Assembly: GCA_963820525.1 (NCBI GenBank)
Contig: CAWGAA010000001.1
Span: 1,152,001 to 1,216,000, forward strand
Reading direction: 5' to 3'
DNA: 64,000 nucleotides
DNA from: an uncultured Spirochaetota bacterium
GTDB lineage: Bacteria; Spirochaetota; Spirochaetia; SZUA-6; Fen-1364
In this document: positions 27,001 to 33,000 of the stretch, piece by piece
Layout of the letters: every line of letters starts with the position of its first letter
How positions within the stretch are numbered: position 1 is the stretch's first letter
Made by a program: the position numbers

Positions 27001-30000
27001 CATCCTCGCCTTCTTCGCGACGGGGAGCTGACGTGATAGATCTCAGGGATGTCTCGTATCGCTATGAGGATGGCGAGGCCCTCCGTCACGTCGATCTTCA
27101 TATCTCCCGGGGCGAATCGGTGGCGTTCATCGGCCCGAACGGCTCGGGAAAGTCCACGCTGCTGAAGCTTCTCAACGGCATTATCGCCCCCCACCAGGGC
27201 AGCTACTTCTTTGAAAACGTGGAGATCACCGGCAAGAAACTGAGGGATTCCGCCTTCGCGAAGCGCTTTCACCAGAAGATCGGATTTCTCTTTCAGAACG
27301 CGGATGCCCAGCTGTTCTGCCCCGCCGTCTACGACGAGGTGGCGTTCGGGCCGAGGCAGATGGGCTTCAGTGAAGGCGAGGTTGATGCTCGTGTCCTCGA
27401 TTGCTTGAAGTTGATGAACATCGAGCATCTCAAGACCCGCATTCCCTATCACCTGAGCGAAGGGGAGAAACGGAAGGTCGCCTTTGCGAGCGTTCTCGCG
27501 TTGAACCCGGACGTCCTTGCCCTCGATGAACCGATGAATGGGCTCGATGCCAGGACGAAGCGCTTCATCCGCGAGGTCATCCGCGCCCTGCACGCGGCGG
27601 GCAAGACCATCCTCTGCTCCACGCATGATTTCAAGTATGTCGAAGGGCTGTTCGTCCGCGGCATCGTCATCTCGGACGGCCACACGATTGTCCGTGATGA
27701 CGACTATGGCGCGATTCTGGCAGACACCGATTTCCTGACCGCCTGCAACATCCTCTGAAGCCCGGGCGATCATTGCGCCTCGCCGGATTCCTCCAGCGCG
27801 TAGGCTATCGCCTCTGCAAGGCTCATCGCTTTGCCCTGGCTCCACGCCCGCCCGTAGGCCTCCTCCCCCAGCTTTTCTCGAACGAGGGCCGTCTCTCCCG
27901 CGAAATCGAAGACAAAGGGCCGCAGAGACCAGACAGGGGGAATGAGCCGCAATCGAAGATCGTCGGCCGCGGCGACAAACCGGGCAGCGCGCTCGAGGCT
28001 GCCTTCCGCCTTGGCAACAAGCGCGAGCACCAACAGACAATACTGGGTGCCCACGGTCTCTCGAAACTCCCTGTAGAGCGTGAGGCTCTTCCTCGCCAGG
28101 GCCGCCGCCTTTGCGTAGTCCGCGCCGCGCGCCGAGAGGTATCCCAGAAACACGAGGGATCCGGCGACGCCCCACTTGCGGACCCGAAGCGGCGTCGACG
28201 TGCTCCACTGTTCGGCGATCAGCTCCTGCTGGATGGCGCAGGCGGCCGCCACGGCATCCGTTGCGCGCGGGAAAACCGCGAAACGGCTGTCCCCTTCGCC
28301 CCGGGGCCGCACAATAGTTCCGCCGTGCCGCACCACTCCGCCTTCAACAAGCGCGTCGTGGCGCATCAGCGCGCGTCGCATCACCTCGGGGTCGCGTTCC
28401 CACAGCTCCGAGCTTGCCTCGATGTCGGTGAGCAGATAGGTAAGCGTTCCAGCGGGAAGAACGGGAGCCATCAGCCCCCCGCATGCAGGACGCGGACGGC
28501 CACGGGAGCCGTCCGGCCTTTCAGGCTCAGGAGCCTGCTCTCGAGGCCCTCGGGCTCCAGGTTCGCCCCGGCGAGCGCATCCTCGGTTACAAGGATCTCT
28601 CCGGGGCCGGCCAGGCCGGCCAGGCGCGCCGTCGTGTTCACCGCGTCTCCCAGCGCCGTGAAATCGGACAGGCCTCCCTTGGAGCCAACGGCCCCCACGA
28701 AGGCCTTCCCCTTGTGAACGCCGACCCCGACCGGGATCCAGGGATCGCCCCGTCCCCCGTGGCCGGTGGCGCGTAGAAGCTCGCGGGCCGCCTGGACCGC
28801 CCGCCGCGTGTACTGCCCTCCCGCGAACCCTGAGGTATAGAGCGCCGCAACCTCGTCTCCGATGAGCTTTTCGATCAGGCCGTCGCTTTTTACAAGCACA
28901 TCGGTGGCCACGCGGTAGAAGCGGTCTATCAGGCGGCTGAACTCTCCATCCCCCAGCCTCTCGGCGAGCGCAGTTGAGCCGCGGATGTCTGCAAACACCA
29001 TAGCCAGCTCTATCTCGGCGCCGCCGGGATGCTGCCGGGCGAACACCTCGCAGTTGTTGCAGAACGTCGGATTCGCCTTTGCGGGCTCCTTGCCCATGAA
29101 AACCCTCACCAGGGTTCCCCCGATCCCCTCGAAGGGGGCATTGCAGATCCGGCAGCGGGGATTTCGCGGCAGCAGTTTCAAGATGTGGCGAAACAGACCG
29201 ACATCCATGTATTCGCGGCCCGTCGTGAGAAGCATCTCCCATGCCTTTTCGAAGCGGGCATCCTCTTTTGTCTCCGACATTTCCCCCTCCTCACCTGCTC
29301 GCATCAGGAGACCCGCCGCTCGGCATGCGGCCGCGGCCGGTCAAGCGCGGCGCCCGGCGGGCTCACCGGAATACGCACCGTAAAAACTGTTTTCCCCGGC
29401 CGGGAGGTGAAATCGATTTCCCCGCCGTGCCGTCGAACAATGCCATAGGCGATGTTCAATCCCTGACCGGACCCCTTGCCCAGAGGCTTTGTCGTGAAAA
29501 AGAGATTGAAGACCCGGGATTTGATATCCTCGGGAATGCCCGGCCCATTGTCTTCCACCTCCACCGCCACACCGTTATCCCGCCGACGCGTCCGCACTAC
29601 GATCTCCCCTTTTCCCGCGAGCGCGTCCGCTGCATTGTCGATCAGGTTGGTCCATACCTGGTTGAGCTCGCTTGCGTGCGCCGAAACGCGGGGAAGACCC
29701 TGGGCGTAATCCCGGCGCACGGTGATGCCCGGGGAAAGCTTGTGCTTCAGGATGATCAGGGTGTTTTCCAACCCCTCATGAATATCCACCTCCTGAACGG
29801 GCCCCTGATCGAGGTAAACATAGCTTTTGAGGGCCTTGACGATATCCGTTATCTGCCGGGCTCCAAGGGCGATTTCCTTTGAAAGAGATTCCACCACGTA
29901 AGAGGCGGAGATTAGCACTATGGCATCTTGAAGCAGGGGAAGCGGATAGACGCGGGCTAGCTCATCGAGCCCGGCGGGCGTGTATCCGATATCGGCCAGG

Positions 30001-33000
30001 TCCGGCGCACGCCGGCTCTCCTCAAGGAGCCCTCTTTTTTCGAGCCACTGCTCGATTGCCTCCTGCGTTTCGCCGCGTTTTGGATCGCTTGCGTCTCCCG
30101 GTCCGTCCGCGCTCTTGCGCGCTTGCGCCAGGCGCCGCGCAAGCTCATCAATGCGGTCCGGCGAGAGCCCCGCACGGACGAGGCGCTCTTGCGCGAAGCT
30201 CAGCTCTTCCACCGCGCGGCGGAGCTGCTCGGCGCCGCGAAGAGCGGCCGAGGCGGGATTGTTCAGCTCGTGAGCCATCCCCGCCGTGAGGATTCCCAGC
30301 TGGGCCATTTTCTCGCTCTGCATAAGCATGGCCTGGGTTTCCCGAAGGCGCGCCGTGACCGTGGCCAGGATGACCCTGGCGGCCGCCGGGCTCGAGGCGA
30401 GCAGCCGCTCAAACTCTCCGCCTCCGATAGCTAAAACGACGCTGTCAGAGAGTGCCCGCGCGCCCGCCATGCGCGGCGCCTTCTCCAGAAGCGCCATCTC
30501 TCCCACCACCTCGCCCTGCCGTCTCACCGCCAGGGTGACTTCCCTGCCGTCGGAGAGCTTGACGATCTCGATCTCTCCTTTTTCGATCACGTATGCGTAG
30601 TCTCCAGGACCGCCCTGCCTGAAAAGCTCCGCACCGGCGGCAAGGCTCACCTCCTTCACCATTGCGGACAGGCTTTCGAGGTCGGCCTCGGGAAGCTCCT
30701 TGAACAGGGCGACCCCTCTGAGGAAATCAAGCACCCGCCCCGCGCCTTCCCCGCTCATACCGACTTCAGGTACTGGTGGATCAGCGCCACCGCCACGGCC
30801 CCTTCTCCCACGGCAGAGCCGACCCTCTTTACCGACATGTGCCGCACATCCCCGGCCGCGAAAATGCCGGGGACCCCCGTCTCCAGCAGATACGGGTCTC
30901 GCTTCAGGTTCCAGCTCTTCGGGCGCGTGCCGTCCGATACAAGATCCCGTCCGGTGAGGATGAACCCGGCCGAATCGCGCTCGACAAGCCCGTCCAGCAT
31001 GTCGGTGTGGGCCGCCGCTCCGATGAAAACGAACATGGCCCCGACGGCGAGCGTTTGCGGGGCGCCCCCGTTCCTTTCCCGTATCGTGACCGATTCCAGC
31101 CGCGACTCGCCCTTCACCTCGGAAACCTCGGCGCCCAAAAGGACGGCGATGTTCTGCGTGGATTGAATCTGCTCGACGAGATAGGCGGACATGCCGGACT
31201 CCAGGGATTCCCCCCGGACAACGAGGAACACGATCCTTGCATGGCGGGAGAGGAATATGGCCCCCTGTCCGGCGGAGTTGGCTCCCCCCACGACAACGAC
31301 GTCCTGCCCCTTGGAGTTGAGCGCTTCCGTCATGGCGGCGCCGTAGTAGATTCCGGCCCCCGTGAGGCGGTCCGCGCCGGGAAGCTCCAGCTTTCTCACG
31401 GACACCCCCGTGGAGATCAGAAGTGCATGGCAGCTGAGCTCGCTCGAATCCGCGAGGCGAACGAAACGGTAGGGATCCTCGACGCGCACCCCGATCACCT
31501 CGCCGCTCACGATCTCCACTCCGAAGCGCCTGGCCTGAATGGTGGCCCGGCGCGCTAAATCCCCGCCGCTCAGGCCCTTGGGAAAGCCGAGGTAGTTTTC
31601 GATCAGCGAGCTGGTGCCGGCCTGCCCGCCGGTGGCCTCCTTTTCGACAAGAACCGTGTGCAGGCCCTCGGAGCCGGCATAGACCGCTGCCGCCAGCCCC
31701 GCCGGGCCGCCGCCGATGATGGCAAGGTCATAGAAAGGACGCGCGGCCCTTGTCTGCAGGCCGCTTTTTTCGGCAAGCTCGCGAACGCCCGGATCCGCGA
31801 GGAAACTTCCATCGGGAAAGAGGACAACCGGAAGCTTCTGCATCCCATCCAGGGTGCCGAGAAGCCGCTGGGCTTCCCCATCCTTTTCGACGTCCATCCA
31901 CAGGTACGGGATCTGGTTTCTGGAGAGGAAATCCTTCACAGCGTGGCTCTTTGCGGACCAGACGGTGCCCAGCACTCGGATTCCTTCAAAGGGAGGCCTG
32001 TTCGCCGCCGCCCAGTCTCCCAGAAGGTCTTCAAGGACCGGGTAGAGCTCTTTCTCCGGAGGATCCCATGGCTTCATGAGGTAATGATCCAGGCCGAGCT
32101 TGTTGATGCTGGTGATCGCAGCCTGGGTGTCGGCATAGGCGGTGAGCAGCACTTTCTTTGCGCCTGGATAAACCGTGACGGCTTCCGCCAGGAATTCGGT
32201 GCCGCTCATCTGCGGCATGCGCTGGTCCACGAGAAAAAGCGCCAGGGCGCCGCCGCGTCTTTTGAGCTCCCGAACGGCCGCGAGCGCCTCGTCCCCGGAA
32301 GGCGCCTTTACGATCCGGTAGTGGGAGCCGAAACGATCGCGAAGATCGCGCTCGATGGCGTTGAGCACCTGCGGCTCATCGTCCACCGTAAGGATTACGG
32401 GTCTTGCCATCACCCTGTCTCCAGAAGTTTTAGAGAACAATACTCGCGCCCGATTTATCTAAATACGAGTATTTTAGTCAATAATAATGGTACCCGGCGG
32501 CATCGTCCATCTCGAACGCGAGCTCTCCCGCCTCGATGCGCGCCGGCAGGCTGTTTTCCCTCGGTGCCAGAGGGCAGATCCAGCGCGGGCTGTACGCGCA
32601 GGAGGGATTATACGAAAAATTGAAGTCGAGCAGGATTTCGTCATGGCTCGCCCCGAGGTCCGCGCCATTGATCGTGTCGTAGAGGTATCTGCCTCCGCCA
32701 AACGTGCTCTCGCCGTTTGTCAGATCCTTGAACGGCAGGAACAGCCCCCCCATAGCCGTCTATCCAATAGAGCGTGAGGGTCGCGGGATTGCCGCCTAGG
32801 GCTTTCCCGGGAATCTCCACGCTTGCGAAGGGACGAAAGCTTATCCTCCCTTCCGCAAGCTCCAGCGTCCGCGGGCTCGCGGCCTTCCCTTCTTCTCTGG
32901 GCTTGATTGGCAGATGAAAGCGCAGGGATGGATCATAAGGAAAATAGGGAAGCTGGCTGAAAGACAGCCTCTTCTCGGGCTCCAGCGGGGATTGGGGATG

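Follow-up and report, generated by a model that had tools for sequence, protein, structure and literature searches.

Which signal reaches a response regulator whose output resembles thioredoxin reductase (TrxR), and what would such an output do? The window analyzed here is a stretch of 64,000 nucleotides from an uncultured Spirochaetota bacterium, and all positions below are counted within it. It encodes such a regulator next to a histidine kinase and a nucleotide cyclase, which the genome-wide survey's note had read as a linear cascade running from cAMP through the kinase to a phosphorylated receiver that switches a flavoenzyme. Our analysis finds a four-gene operon at this locus and, on balance, leans slightly towards reading it as a self-contained second-messenger-to-phosphorelay module that switches a flavoprotein.

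ORF calling and reading of the sequence showed a minus-strand operon of four translationally coupled ORFs. The three genes described in the note were all recovered on that strand, with the positions and Pfam domains given there. The response regulator gene (P0004; 30755..32410, minus strand) encodes 551 aa from an ATG start and comprises a receiver (REC), a glutaredoxin (Grx)-like fold and a TrxR-like flavoprotein. With a TTG start at 32440 its product would be 561 aa long; a sequence identical to the 551-aa form is present in the database. Then follow the genes for a soluble histidine kinase (29304..30758, minus strand; 484 aa) and a class III adenylate cyclase (28471..29304, minus strand; 277 aa, or 269 aa if the second Met is used), and a fourth coupled ORF (27770..28471, minus strand; 233 aa). 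Stop and start codons overlap by 4 nt between regulator and kinase and by 1 nt between kinase and cyclase, and the A of the fourth ORF's ATG is the A of the cyclase stop codon TGA. The order of transcription, from response regulator to kinase to cyclase, is opposite to the proposed flow of the signal. The region 5' of the regulator (32411..32509, minus strand) contains GGAGA 7 nt ahead of the ATG and weak sigma-70-like sites, such as TGGACG-17-TATTAT at 32509..32481; the two sites found, compared with 0.8 +/- 1.1 in shuffled sequences, are not significant.

Pfam profiles detected Response_reg (52 bits) and Pyr_redox_2 (111 bits) in the regulator, and its AlphaFold (AF2) model reached a pLDDT of 91.7 and a pTM of 0.86. 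The REC domain (PF00072, the 52-bit match; aa 5-128; 32027..32398, minus strand) has D10, D11, the phospho-acceptor D62 (codon 32225-32227), T90 and K113, and all five residues are kept in 79/79 orthologues from other phyla. Receivers of distant subfamilies often lack the acceptor Asp (22/35 representatives), so phosphorylation is not the universal control in this family. Between REC and flavoprotein, the AF2 model contains a b-a-b-a-b-b-a fold at aa 144-215, and profiles together with this model delimit a Cys-less glutaredoxin/mycoredoxin-like thioredoxin fold (aa 143-216; 31763..31984, minus strand). The profile scores (TIGR02200, 38.4 bits; PF00462, 17 bits) are both below cut-off, and PF00462 is precomputed for several regulator homologues. 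In the model, S-A-K-S appears to occupy the expected place of the CxxC. This fold and the fourth ORF were both absent from the earlier note.

The remainder of the chain (aa 226-551; 30758..31735, minus strand) is a TrxR-like FAD/NAD(P)H module according to phmmer searches against the PDB, alignment and Foldseek. Sequence matches to TrxRs ranged from E 6e-49 (7jyp) to 1e-33. Like the low-molecular-weight TrxR TrxB (TIGR01292; for example 7jyp and L. lactis 5mh4), to which it is 31-33% identical, the module has an FAD/NAD(P)H fold of two domains, and it carries both the FAD motifs and GxGxxA. A comparison of 53 diverse sequences showed little or no variation in the FAD motifs (GxGxxG, GGQ, GD) or in the dinucleotide motif GG(G/A)NSAGQA, which argues for selection on cofactor binding. 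The redox cysteines of TrxB are lost, however. As the note had claimed, the regulator has no CxxC: its single Cys is C327, and G357-A-A-M360 (codons 31331-31342) aligns with the CATC of the same genome's TrxB. It further differs from TrxB by VRGESLE (that is, xRGxxLx) at the HRRxxxR motif, by the additional N-terminal REC and Grx-like domains and, compared with 7jyp and the genome's own TrxB, by a 19-residue insertion ahead of the GD motif. Public records nevertheless carry the NCBI name "fused response regulator/thioredoxin-disulfide reductase", and TIGR01292 is the best NCBIfam match of the regulator. That match, at 230 bits, falls short of the 343-bit cut-off, and the genome separately encodes a canonical TrxB, which has CATC and HRRDRFR. 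The CxxC is missing at the TrxR site in 150/150 family representatives, at least nine of which have no Cys anywhere, so the second half of the public name is wrong. A genuine thioredoxin-disulfide reductase is refuted by these sequences, and we consider it extremely improbable.

In another flavoprotein, AhpF (alkyl hydroperoxide reductase subunit F; 4o5q, 1hyu), a TrxR-like module likewise follows a thioredoxin-fold domain at the N-terminus. Foldseek aligned it with the regulator model over 514-547 columns (E ~1e-30), with a whole-chain TM of only 0.40, and the AhpF profile TIGR03140 gave 147 bits, below the family cut-off. AhpF relays electrons via two CxxC centres, both of which are missing in the regulator.

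The survey's note had suggested a TrxR-type ferredoxin:NADP+ reductase (FNR) as the output. Such enzymes, including B. subtilis YumC (3lzw) and the Chlorobaculum FNR (3ab1), have the TrxR fold and no redox disulfide, like the regulator, and both were among the PDB sequence matches (3ab1, E 1.7e-20; 3lzw, E 2e-14). The geometry of the model also fits: in Foldseek searches it matched TrxRs in the flavin-reducing (FR) or NADP-bound state (TMt 0.95 for 5mh4, 0.93 for 3cty, 0.92 for 3r9u and 0.90 for 5usx), and the FO-state TrxR 5mjk reached only 0.64, so that the geometry predicted by AlphaFold is FR-like. Genuine TrxRs are far closer in sequence, however, their best E value being the 6e-49 given above. 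TrxR-type FNRs have a C-terminal extension that covers the flavin; the TrxR core alignment reaches the last residues of the regulator, which therefore lacks it. In addition, no ferredoxin or flavodoxin gene was conserved among the neighbours in the best 80 loci from other phyla. The suggestion thus looks weak, and a ferredoxin/flavodoxin:NADP+ reductase is improbable.

The output unit of ~410 aa, made of the Grx-like fold and the flavoprotein, also stands alone or behind other N-terminal regulatory domains in the family, which identifies it as the effector. Whether it is catalytic is less clear, since the degeneration of HRRxxxR, the motif for the NADPH 2'-phosphate, calls for caution on cofactor preference and even on turnover. 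The flavoprotein could instead be a pseudoenzyme, binding FAD and/or NAD(P)(H) as a redox-state sensor or as a scaffold. The regulator would then work through contacts with other proteins, such as the zf-UBP protein that adjoins it in other lineages. The loss of thiol chemistry from the Grx-like and TrxR-like parts alike and the degenerate 2'-phosphate motif are consistent with this. So is the neighbourhood: neither an acceptor gene nor any other third gene is conserved beside the kinase-regulator pair, the most frequent neighbour being the zf-UBP protein, in 13 of the best 80 loci. The degenerate receivers and cyclic-nucleotide (cNMP) pockets of many subfamilies would also suit a module leaving classical signalling and catalysis. 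On the other hand, the FAD and dinucleotide motifs are conserved beyond what a scaffold needs, and the family has invariant residues of its own (S408, M407, Y410, R399, W471, D479). The window's operon has no zf-UBP gene nearby; the genome's only match lies ~660 kb off and contains an in-frame TAG. We regard a pseudoenzyme as unlikely, and retain an enzymatic output as the working reading.

The kinase combines a cNMP-binding domain (aa 1-122; cNMP_binding, 79.9 bits), an inserted four-helix module (aa 200-270) and a catalytic domain (aa 322-464; HATPase_c, 84.7 bits), and also matches PDB entries. H163 (codon 30270-30272), N375 and the G-boxes are invariant among 40 kinase sequences. In the AF2 model (pLDDT 90.2), an unbroken helix (124-195) extends from the cNMP domain to H163. 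As the last helix of the cNMP domain thereby continues into the His163 dimerisation helix, ligand binding would be expected to reset kinase activity.

The pairing of this kinase with the regulator is supported as a conserved unit. Relatives of the regulator occur in at least 597 of the 600 genome stretches listed, with full-length orthologues (49-63% identity) in Cyanobacteria, Chloroflexota, Acidobacteriota, Actinomycetota, Bacteroidota and Gemmatimonadota. In the window's own order, the earlier count of 2/14 genomes became 16/92 in a wider survey that included the window's genome. In 67 of the best 80 loci in other phyla, a kinase homologue is encoded no more than 1200 bp from the regulator, and cNMP_binding was found in 63/67 of these kinase translations (59 above cut-off). 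Within the order, a homologous kinase adjoins the regulator in 12/12 REC-type loci, which extends the adjacency reported by the note. The proposal that a pyridine-nucleotide oxidoreductase would be new as the output of a response regulator fails: the pair is widespread, the NCBI name above denotes an identical architecture, and, a possibility that the note had raised for census papers, a passage of the response-regulator census of Galperin et al. 2018 (PMC5847659) lists REC with thioredoxin reductase. What sets the window's lineage apart from that family is an additional, coupled zinc-ribbon cyclase, together with a partner kinase whose cNMP pocket is intact.

The cyclase scored 34.1 bits against Guanylate_cyc (PF00211; cut-off 21.9). 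Aligned with CyaC (1wc0, E 5e-16), its FADIRG, EKLIGDE, FTALGD and VNTTARL pair with CyaC counterparts, which we take to be the catalytic and the Lys/Thr adenine-specifying residues. An N-terminal zinc ribbon (CxxC...CxxC) is conserved in two further loci of the order, L111 and L116. In 8/12 order loci there are cyclase-domain ORFs, which are of at least three kinds and several of which are translationally coupled; by chance, ~2% of loci would be expected to have a neighbouring cyclase, as estimated from the 15 cyclase domains in the 5.05 Mb genome. Outside the order, a cyclase neighbours only 3 of the best 80 loci. The cyclase is thus a lineage-specific addition to the kinase-regulator pair.

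The ligand pocket follows a similar pattern. The window kinase keeps the motif G86-E87...P95-R96-M-A (G-E...P-R-x-A), and the Glu and Arg are kept in 9/9 order relatives, two of which have S or A for the Pro. Among family kinases, the phosphate-binding Arg is present in 6/39 and the Glu in 16/39, and directly fused cNMP-like domains have the Arg in 0/16. Judged by these residues, the pocket is intact in the window's order and lost in most of the family; with its degeneration and the scarcity of cyclases, the cAMP link is weak outside the order. Alternatively, the cNMP-type domain of the kinase may bind neither cAMP nor cGMP but another ligand, with the neighbouring cyclases functionally unlinked, as the abundance of cyclase domains in the genome would allow; Gly99 of the window's pocket, at a site where all nine order relatives have Ser or Thr, points the same way. 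Against this speak the Glu and Arg in 10/10 order kinases, the cyclase genes of varied type beside them, several of these coupled, and the family protein P0128, the sole member with an added C-terminal cNMP domain, whose pocket is canonical. Another ligand is rather unlikely on this evidence. Of the cascade proposed earlier, the kinase-regulator core holds, with catalytic residues intact in receiver, kinase and cyclase, and the entry of cAMP is plausible within the order.

In the module that we favor, the zinc-ribbon cyclase would produce cAMP, with the 14 other cyclase-domain genes as possible further sources, and the canonical pocket of the soluble kinase would take it up. Binding may reset autophosphorylation or phosphatase activity, in either direction, and the phosphoryl group would pass to Asp62, so that the receiver state gates the ~410-aa output. 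Unable to reduce disulfides, this unit most likely oxidises NAD(P)H at a flavin in FR geometry and hands the electrons to a non-thiol acceptor such as O2, a quinone, a small redox protein or a metabolite. CheB, PleD/WspR and RpfG use phosphorylation of the receiver to control an attached enzymatic domain instead of binding to DNA; the window regulator follows the same logic, with a predicted flavoprotein as output. The literature searched yielded no biochemical or functional work on any member of this family.

The fourth ORF is what remains, in frame, of a large gene of the cyclase-ATPase type. It joins the N-terminal half of a cyclase domain (aa 2-91; phmmer against the PDB, E 5e-5) to a helical C-terminal tail. 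In two other loci, L107 (72% and 65% identity) and L108 (71% and 61%), the two halves lie ~2.2 kb apart within one long ORF directly 3' of the kinase. Independent metagenome contigs span the short form.

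Analysis of the reverse strand of the window showed four co-directional open reading frames (ORFs) between positions 27770 and 32410, with neighbours overlapping by 1 to 4 nt. The first gene encodes a response regulator (30755..32410, reverse strand), with an ATG at 32410 and the sequence GGAGA located 7 nt upstream; its 551-aa product is identical to the database protein P0004. It is followed on the same strand by the genes for a histidine kinase of 484 aa (29304..30758, with a 4-nt overlap with the regulator gene) and a class III cyclase of 277 aa (28471..29304), and by a fourth ORF of 233 aa (27770..28471). 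The genome-wide survey's note had described the first three of these genes, and Pfam agreed with the domain types that it gave them, namely a cyclase, a kinase with a cyclic-nucleotide-binding (cNMP) domain, and a receiver (REC) domain fused to a flavoprotein. The fourth ORF was absent from its list. The operon flanks are unrelated to the signalling genes: a cbiM(+PDGLE)-cbiQ-cbiO cobalt/nickel ECF transporter operon (25226-27758, forward strand) is convergent with the end of the signalling operon, and a divergent DUF998 gene is found on the other flank. Just upstream of the regulator gene, a DUF1684-type ORF of 91 aa (32478-32753, reverse strand) matches the C-terminal half of its profile only (positions 68-138 of 139, E 8e-28) and looks like a truncated gene. 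Promoter and terminator scans at the operon gave no excess over shuffled sequence. The nearest homologues, sharing 83% and 72% identity, are named Spirochaetia bacterium and Spirochaetaceae bacterium by their sources.

The C-terminal module of the regulator has a thioredoxin reductase (TrxR) fold. Its top sequence match in the PDB is TrxR 7jyp (E 6e-49), and it scores 230.2 bits against TIGR01292 (low-Mr thioredoxin-disulfide reductase), below the curated cut-off of 343.45. In an alignment with the canonical TrxB of the same genome (311 aa), CATC of TrxB faces GAAM of the regulator, and HRRDRFR (HRRxxxR, the NADPH 2'-phosphate motif) faces VRGESLE, with a single Arg retained (R399). As stated in the survey's note, the regulator has no CxxC at all, and the entire protein contains one Cys, C327. 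It differs in this respect from AhpF, which has two CxxC centres, one in its N-terminal thioredoxin-fold domain and one in its TrxR-like module, both missing here. The CxxC is gone from the TrxR site not only in this protein but also in all of the best 150 cluster representatives at 50% identity, which excludes a disulfide reductase or a true thioredoxin reductase. Eleven of these representatives carry a CxxC at another position, while nine or more are entirely free of Cys. The consensus at the former CxxC site, derived from 53 sequences, is Y-G-A-A-x-x-E-A. The survey's note had also suggested that the flavoprotein could be a TrxR-type ferredoxin:NADP+ reductase (FNR). This is possible but poorly supported: matches to the YumC/FNR group are at least 29 orders of magnitude weaker than those to TrxR. 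TrxR-type FNRs also have a C-terminal extension that stacks on the flavin, whereas the chain of the regulator ends with the TrxR core.

We then considered what such a module could do. Across the 53 sequences, G233, G235, G238, G520, D521, G375, N378 and A380 are invariant, giving the GxGxxG and GD motifs for FAD and the GxGxxA motif for NAD(P)H; the dinucleotide motif GG(G/A)NSAGQA and the FAD motifs are invariant or nearly so. This conservation suggests that selection acts on the cofactor sites. R399, M407, S408, Y410, W471 and D479 are fixed positions specific to the family. The closest structural fits of the AlphaFold model of the regulator (pLDDT 91.7, pTM 0.86) are to TrxRs that are in the flavin-reducing (FR) state or bound to NADP (TMt of 0.95 for 5mh4, 0.93 for 3cty, 0.92 for 3r9u and 0.90 for 5usx), and the fit to the flavin-oxidising TrxR 5mjk is poor (0.64). 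The conserved cofactor motifs and the geometry of the model suggest that the output module would most likely pass electrons from NAD(P)H, through a TrxR scaffold held in the FR state, to a non-thiol acceptor. Against this reading, the NADPH 2'-phosphate motif is degenerate, and no conserved acceptor gene accompanies the regulator: when 2,115 neighbour ORFs from the best 80 loci were clustered, no third gene was found in more than 13 loci. Both would fit the main rival explanation, in which the flavoprotein is a pseudoenzyme or a redox sensor working by protein contacts, while the strict conservation of the FAD and NAD(P)H motifs speaks against that rival. The commonest neighbour cluster (13/80 loci, e.g. 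L081:5672-5992) consists of a UBP-type zinc finger protein of ~107 aa (PF02148). The sole zf-UBP match in the window's genome is located ~660 kb away (G000:C1:1848142-1848342) and contains an in-frame TAG.

The N-terminal receiver domain (PF00072, 52 bits) has a complete phospho-acceptor set, D10, D11, D62, T90 and K113, and these residues are kept in 79/79 orthologues from other phyla. Among 35 more distant REC-type representatives (P0130-P0273), the acceptor Asp is missing in 22, of which 11 have Ala instead. Predicted pseudo-receivers lacking this Asp are a trait of large subfamilies carrying the same flavoprotein. Between the receiver and the TrxR-like module lies a thioredoxin-fold domain (aa 143-216), recognized from the b-a-b-a-b-b-a topology of the AlphaFold model and from sub-threshold mycoredoxin and glutaredoxin matches. 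Judging from its position in the fold, S-A-K-S of this glutaredoxin-like (Grx-like) domain probably occupies the place expected for a CxxC.

The model of the kinase (pLDDT 90.2) comprises a cyclic-nucleotide-binding barrel (aa 1-122) whose last helix runs unbroken (aa 124-195) into the first dimerisation helix, bearing H163. A confidently modelled four-helix module (aa 200-270; 29949-30161, reverse strand) interrupts the dimerisation hairpin at its tip; the second dimerisation helix comes next, and then the catalytic domain. This module (motif SDxEDxLxxWL...) is shared by 40 family kinases and corresponds to no Pfam family. Because its ~70 aa split the two dimerisation helices, the Pfam HisKA threshold is missed; HATPase_c is detected with 84.7 bits. 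The residues of the H, N, G1, F and G2 boxes, namely H163-E-x-x-N-P, N375, G405, F420, G427, G429 and G431, do not vary among the 40 sequences. The nucleotide pocket of the cNMP domain (PF00027) reads G86-E87-M-A-L-L-E-K-A-P95-R96-M-A-G and contains the canonical Glu (Gly-Glu) and Arg (Arg-x-Ala). With this intact motif, it is predicted to be able to bind cAMP or cGMP.

The kinase and the regulator form a conserved pair. In 67 of the best 80 loci, a kinase that shares this core and its inserted module was found within 1200 bp of the regulator. When two kinases located further off are counted as well, the usual position is immediately downstream and on the same strand (59 loci). Of the 67 kinase translations, 63 have a cNMP_binding match in Pfam, 59 of them above the cut-off; one has a PAS domain instead, one has nothing, and the other two (L047 and L070), translated out of frame, are counted as misses. 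In the window's order, the regulator is present in 16 of 92 genomes, and the kinase adjoins it in 12/12 REC-type loci examined. One genome of the order (G036) carries two paralogous systems, L109 and L116, with regulators 72% and 58% identical to that of the window and with different gene orders (regulator-kinase against kinase-regulator-cyclase).

The survey's note had proposed a linear cascade from cAMP through the kinase and the receiver to the flavoenzyme. Alignment of the window's class III adenylate cyclase (PF00211) with Spirulina CyaC (1wc0, E 5e-16) placed FADIRG, EKLIGDE, FTALGD and VNTTARL opposite their CyaC counterparts, which we take to supply the pair of metal Asp, the Lys and Thr that specify adenine, and the transition-state Asn/Arg. 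The N-terminus contains a CxxC...CxxC ribbon that is conserved in both full-length homologues of the order that were aligned (L111 and L116). Nine of the 12 kinases of the order have a cNMP domain detectable by tblastn, and 9/9 retain its Glu and Arg within the motif G-E-M-A-(L/I)-L-E...R-M-A-(S/T); Pro is replaced by S or A in two of the nine. Gly99 of the window's pocket corresponds to Ser or Thr in 9/9 of these relatives. Cyclase-domain ORFs are present in 8 of the 12 REC-type loci and are of at least three kinds: small zinc-ribbon cyclases, large cyclase-ATPases, and a third kind with N-terminal regions that, from the alignment, look membrane-bound. The window's genome (5.05 Mb) contains 15 class III cyclase-domain matches, the operon's cyclase being the weakest in Pfam (34.9 bits); beside this number, we estimate chance adjacency of a cyclase at ~2% per locus.

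Outside the order, the link to cAMP is weak. The pocket Arg was found in only 6 and the Glu in 16 of 39 family kinases, and the Arg is present in 0/16 of the cNMP-like domains fused directly to the flavoprotein unit (P0170, P0190, P0204 and 13 others). In P0128 (REC, flavoprotein, cNMP), the additional cNMP domain at the C-terminus has a canonical pocket. Using an HMM built from the order's cyclases, a cyclase-domain ORF was detected within 6 kb on either side in only 3 of the best 80 loci; with the window's cyclase as the tblastn/phmmer query, it was detected in one. The proposed cascade is plausible in the window's lineage, where the pocket is intact and cyclases recur. In this lineage, cAMP would act on the cNMP pocket of the kinase, and the signal would likely pass from the nucleotide domain to H163 through the coiled-coil continuity seen in the model. 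The phosphoryl group would then be transferred to Asp62 of the regulator, whose state would switch the flavoprotein.

To place this system among known regulators, we assessed the distribution of the family. A phmmer search of 1.84 billion cluster representatives gave 3,433 matches at E<=1e-30, and a signature scan, run on one genome for each species, hit at least 600 stretches, with relatives encoded in 597 of the 600 listed. By these numbers, the family is among the larger response-regulator output classes without a known reaction. The best 80 of at least 597 relatives are all full-length REC forms with 49-63% identity, from Cyanobacteria, Chloroflexota, Acidobacteriota, Actinomycetota, Bacteroidota, Gemmatimonadota and others. 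Streptomyces, Nostoc/Anabaena and Chitinophaga are among the genera with such loci. The Grx-like plus TrxR-like stretch of ~410 aa was also found with an N-terminal cNMP-like domain in place of REC (17 representatives checked), alone (four representatives), and with SnoaL, EF-hands or an extra C-terminal cNMP domain, and thus appears to be a swappable output unit. Public names for the proteins include "fused response regulator/thioredoxin-disulfide reductase", "FAD-dependent oxidoreductase" and "response regulator". Judged by the residues at the TrxR site, the name thioredoxin-disulfide reductase is demonstrably wrong. The combination of REC and thioredoxin reductase is listed in a passage of the census by Galperin et al. 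(PMC5847659), so the architecture is already catalogued. The original observation was confirmed, and extended by the Grx-like fold, the fourth ORF and the wider survey. The novelty claimed for the REC-flavoenzyme architecture is not supported, since that passage and the public names already cover this class of regulator. No functional study of the family was found in full-text literature searches, in which the census passage was the sole relevant text; PMC11344345 and PMC6843130 proved unrelated to it. The window's system is a new member of this catalogued family.

A more far-reaching reading is possible, although we consider it rather doubtful. The operon of this lineage could be a complete cAMP-gated phosphorelay switching a new kind of flavoenzyme, with an FR-locked TrxR scaffold and a new active site made of invariant residues specific to the family (E362, R399, M407-S408-x-Y410, W471 and D479) that would burn NAD(P)H on a non-thiol acceptor. 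The many relatives with Asp-less receivers or Arg-less pockets would then be versions rewired to other inputs. If true, a second messenger would adjust the cellular redox balance, or generate a reactive oxygen signal, by a direct path that bypasses transcription. Identifying the acceptor of the flavoprotein would establish a new post-translational link between second messengers and redox metabolism. The window's lineage is a good test case, as its operon retains a canonical pocket and the full set of phosphorelay residues and also encodes a small, soluble cyclase. The input, relay and output components seem intact and soluble, and each could be assayed as a purified soluble protein.

The fourth ORF matches the first half of cyclase domains through its aa 2-91 (E 5e-5). 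In the two closest relatives (L107 and L108), its two halves (the N-terminal 98 aa and the C-terminal ~130 aa) lie ~2.2 kb apart within one long ORF directly after the kinase gene, with identities of 72% and 65% in L107 and 71% and 61% in L108. The fourth ORF is the remnant of a large cyclase-ATPase-type gene, full-length in L107 and L108, that lost ~2.2 kb by an in-frame internal deletion. The short form is spanned by contigs of independent metagenome runs that come from three or more studies, and is therefore not an assembly artefact. Contigs from two wetland runs (X2 and X3) carry a TT insertion at 27769, just past the stop of the fourth ORF, together with scattered substitutions, and are strain variants of the same locus.
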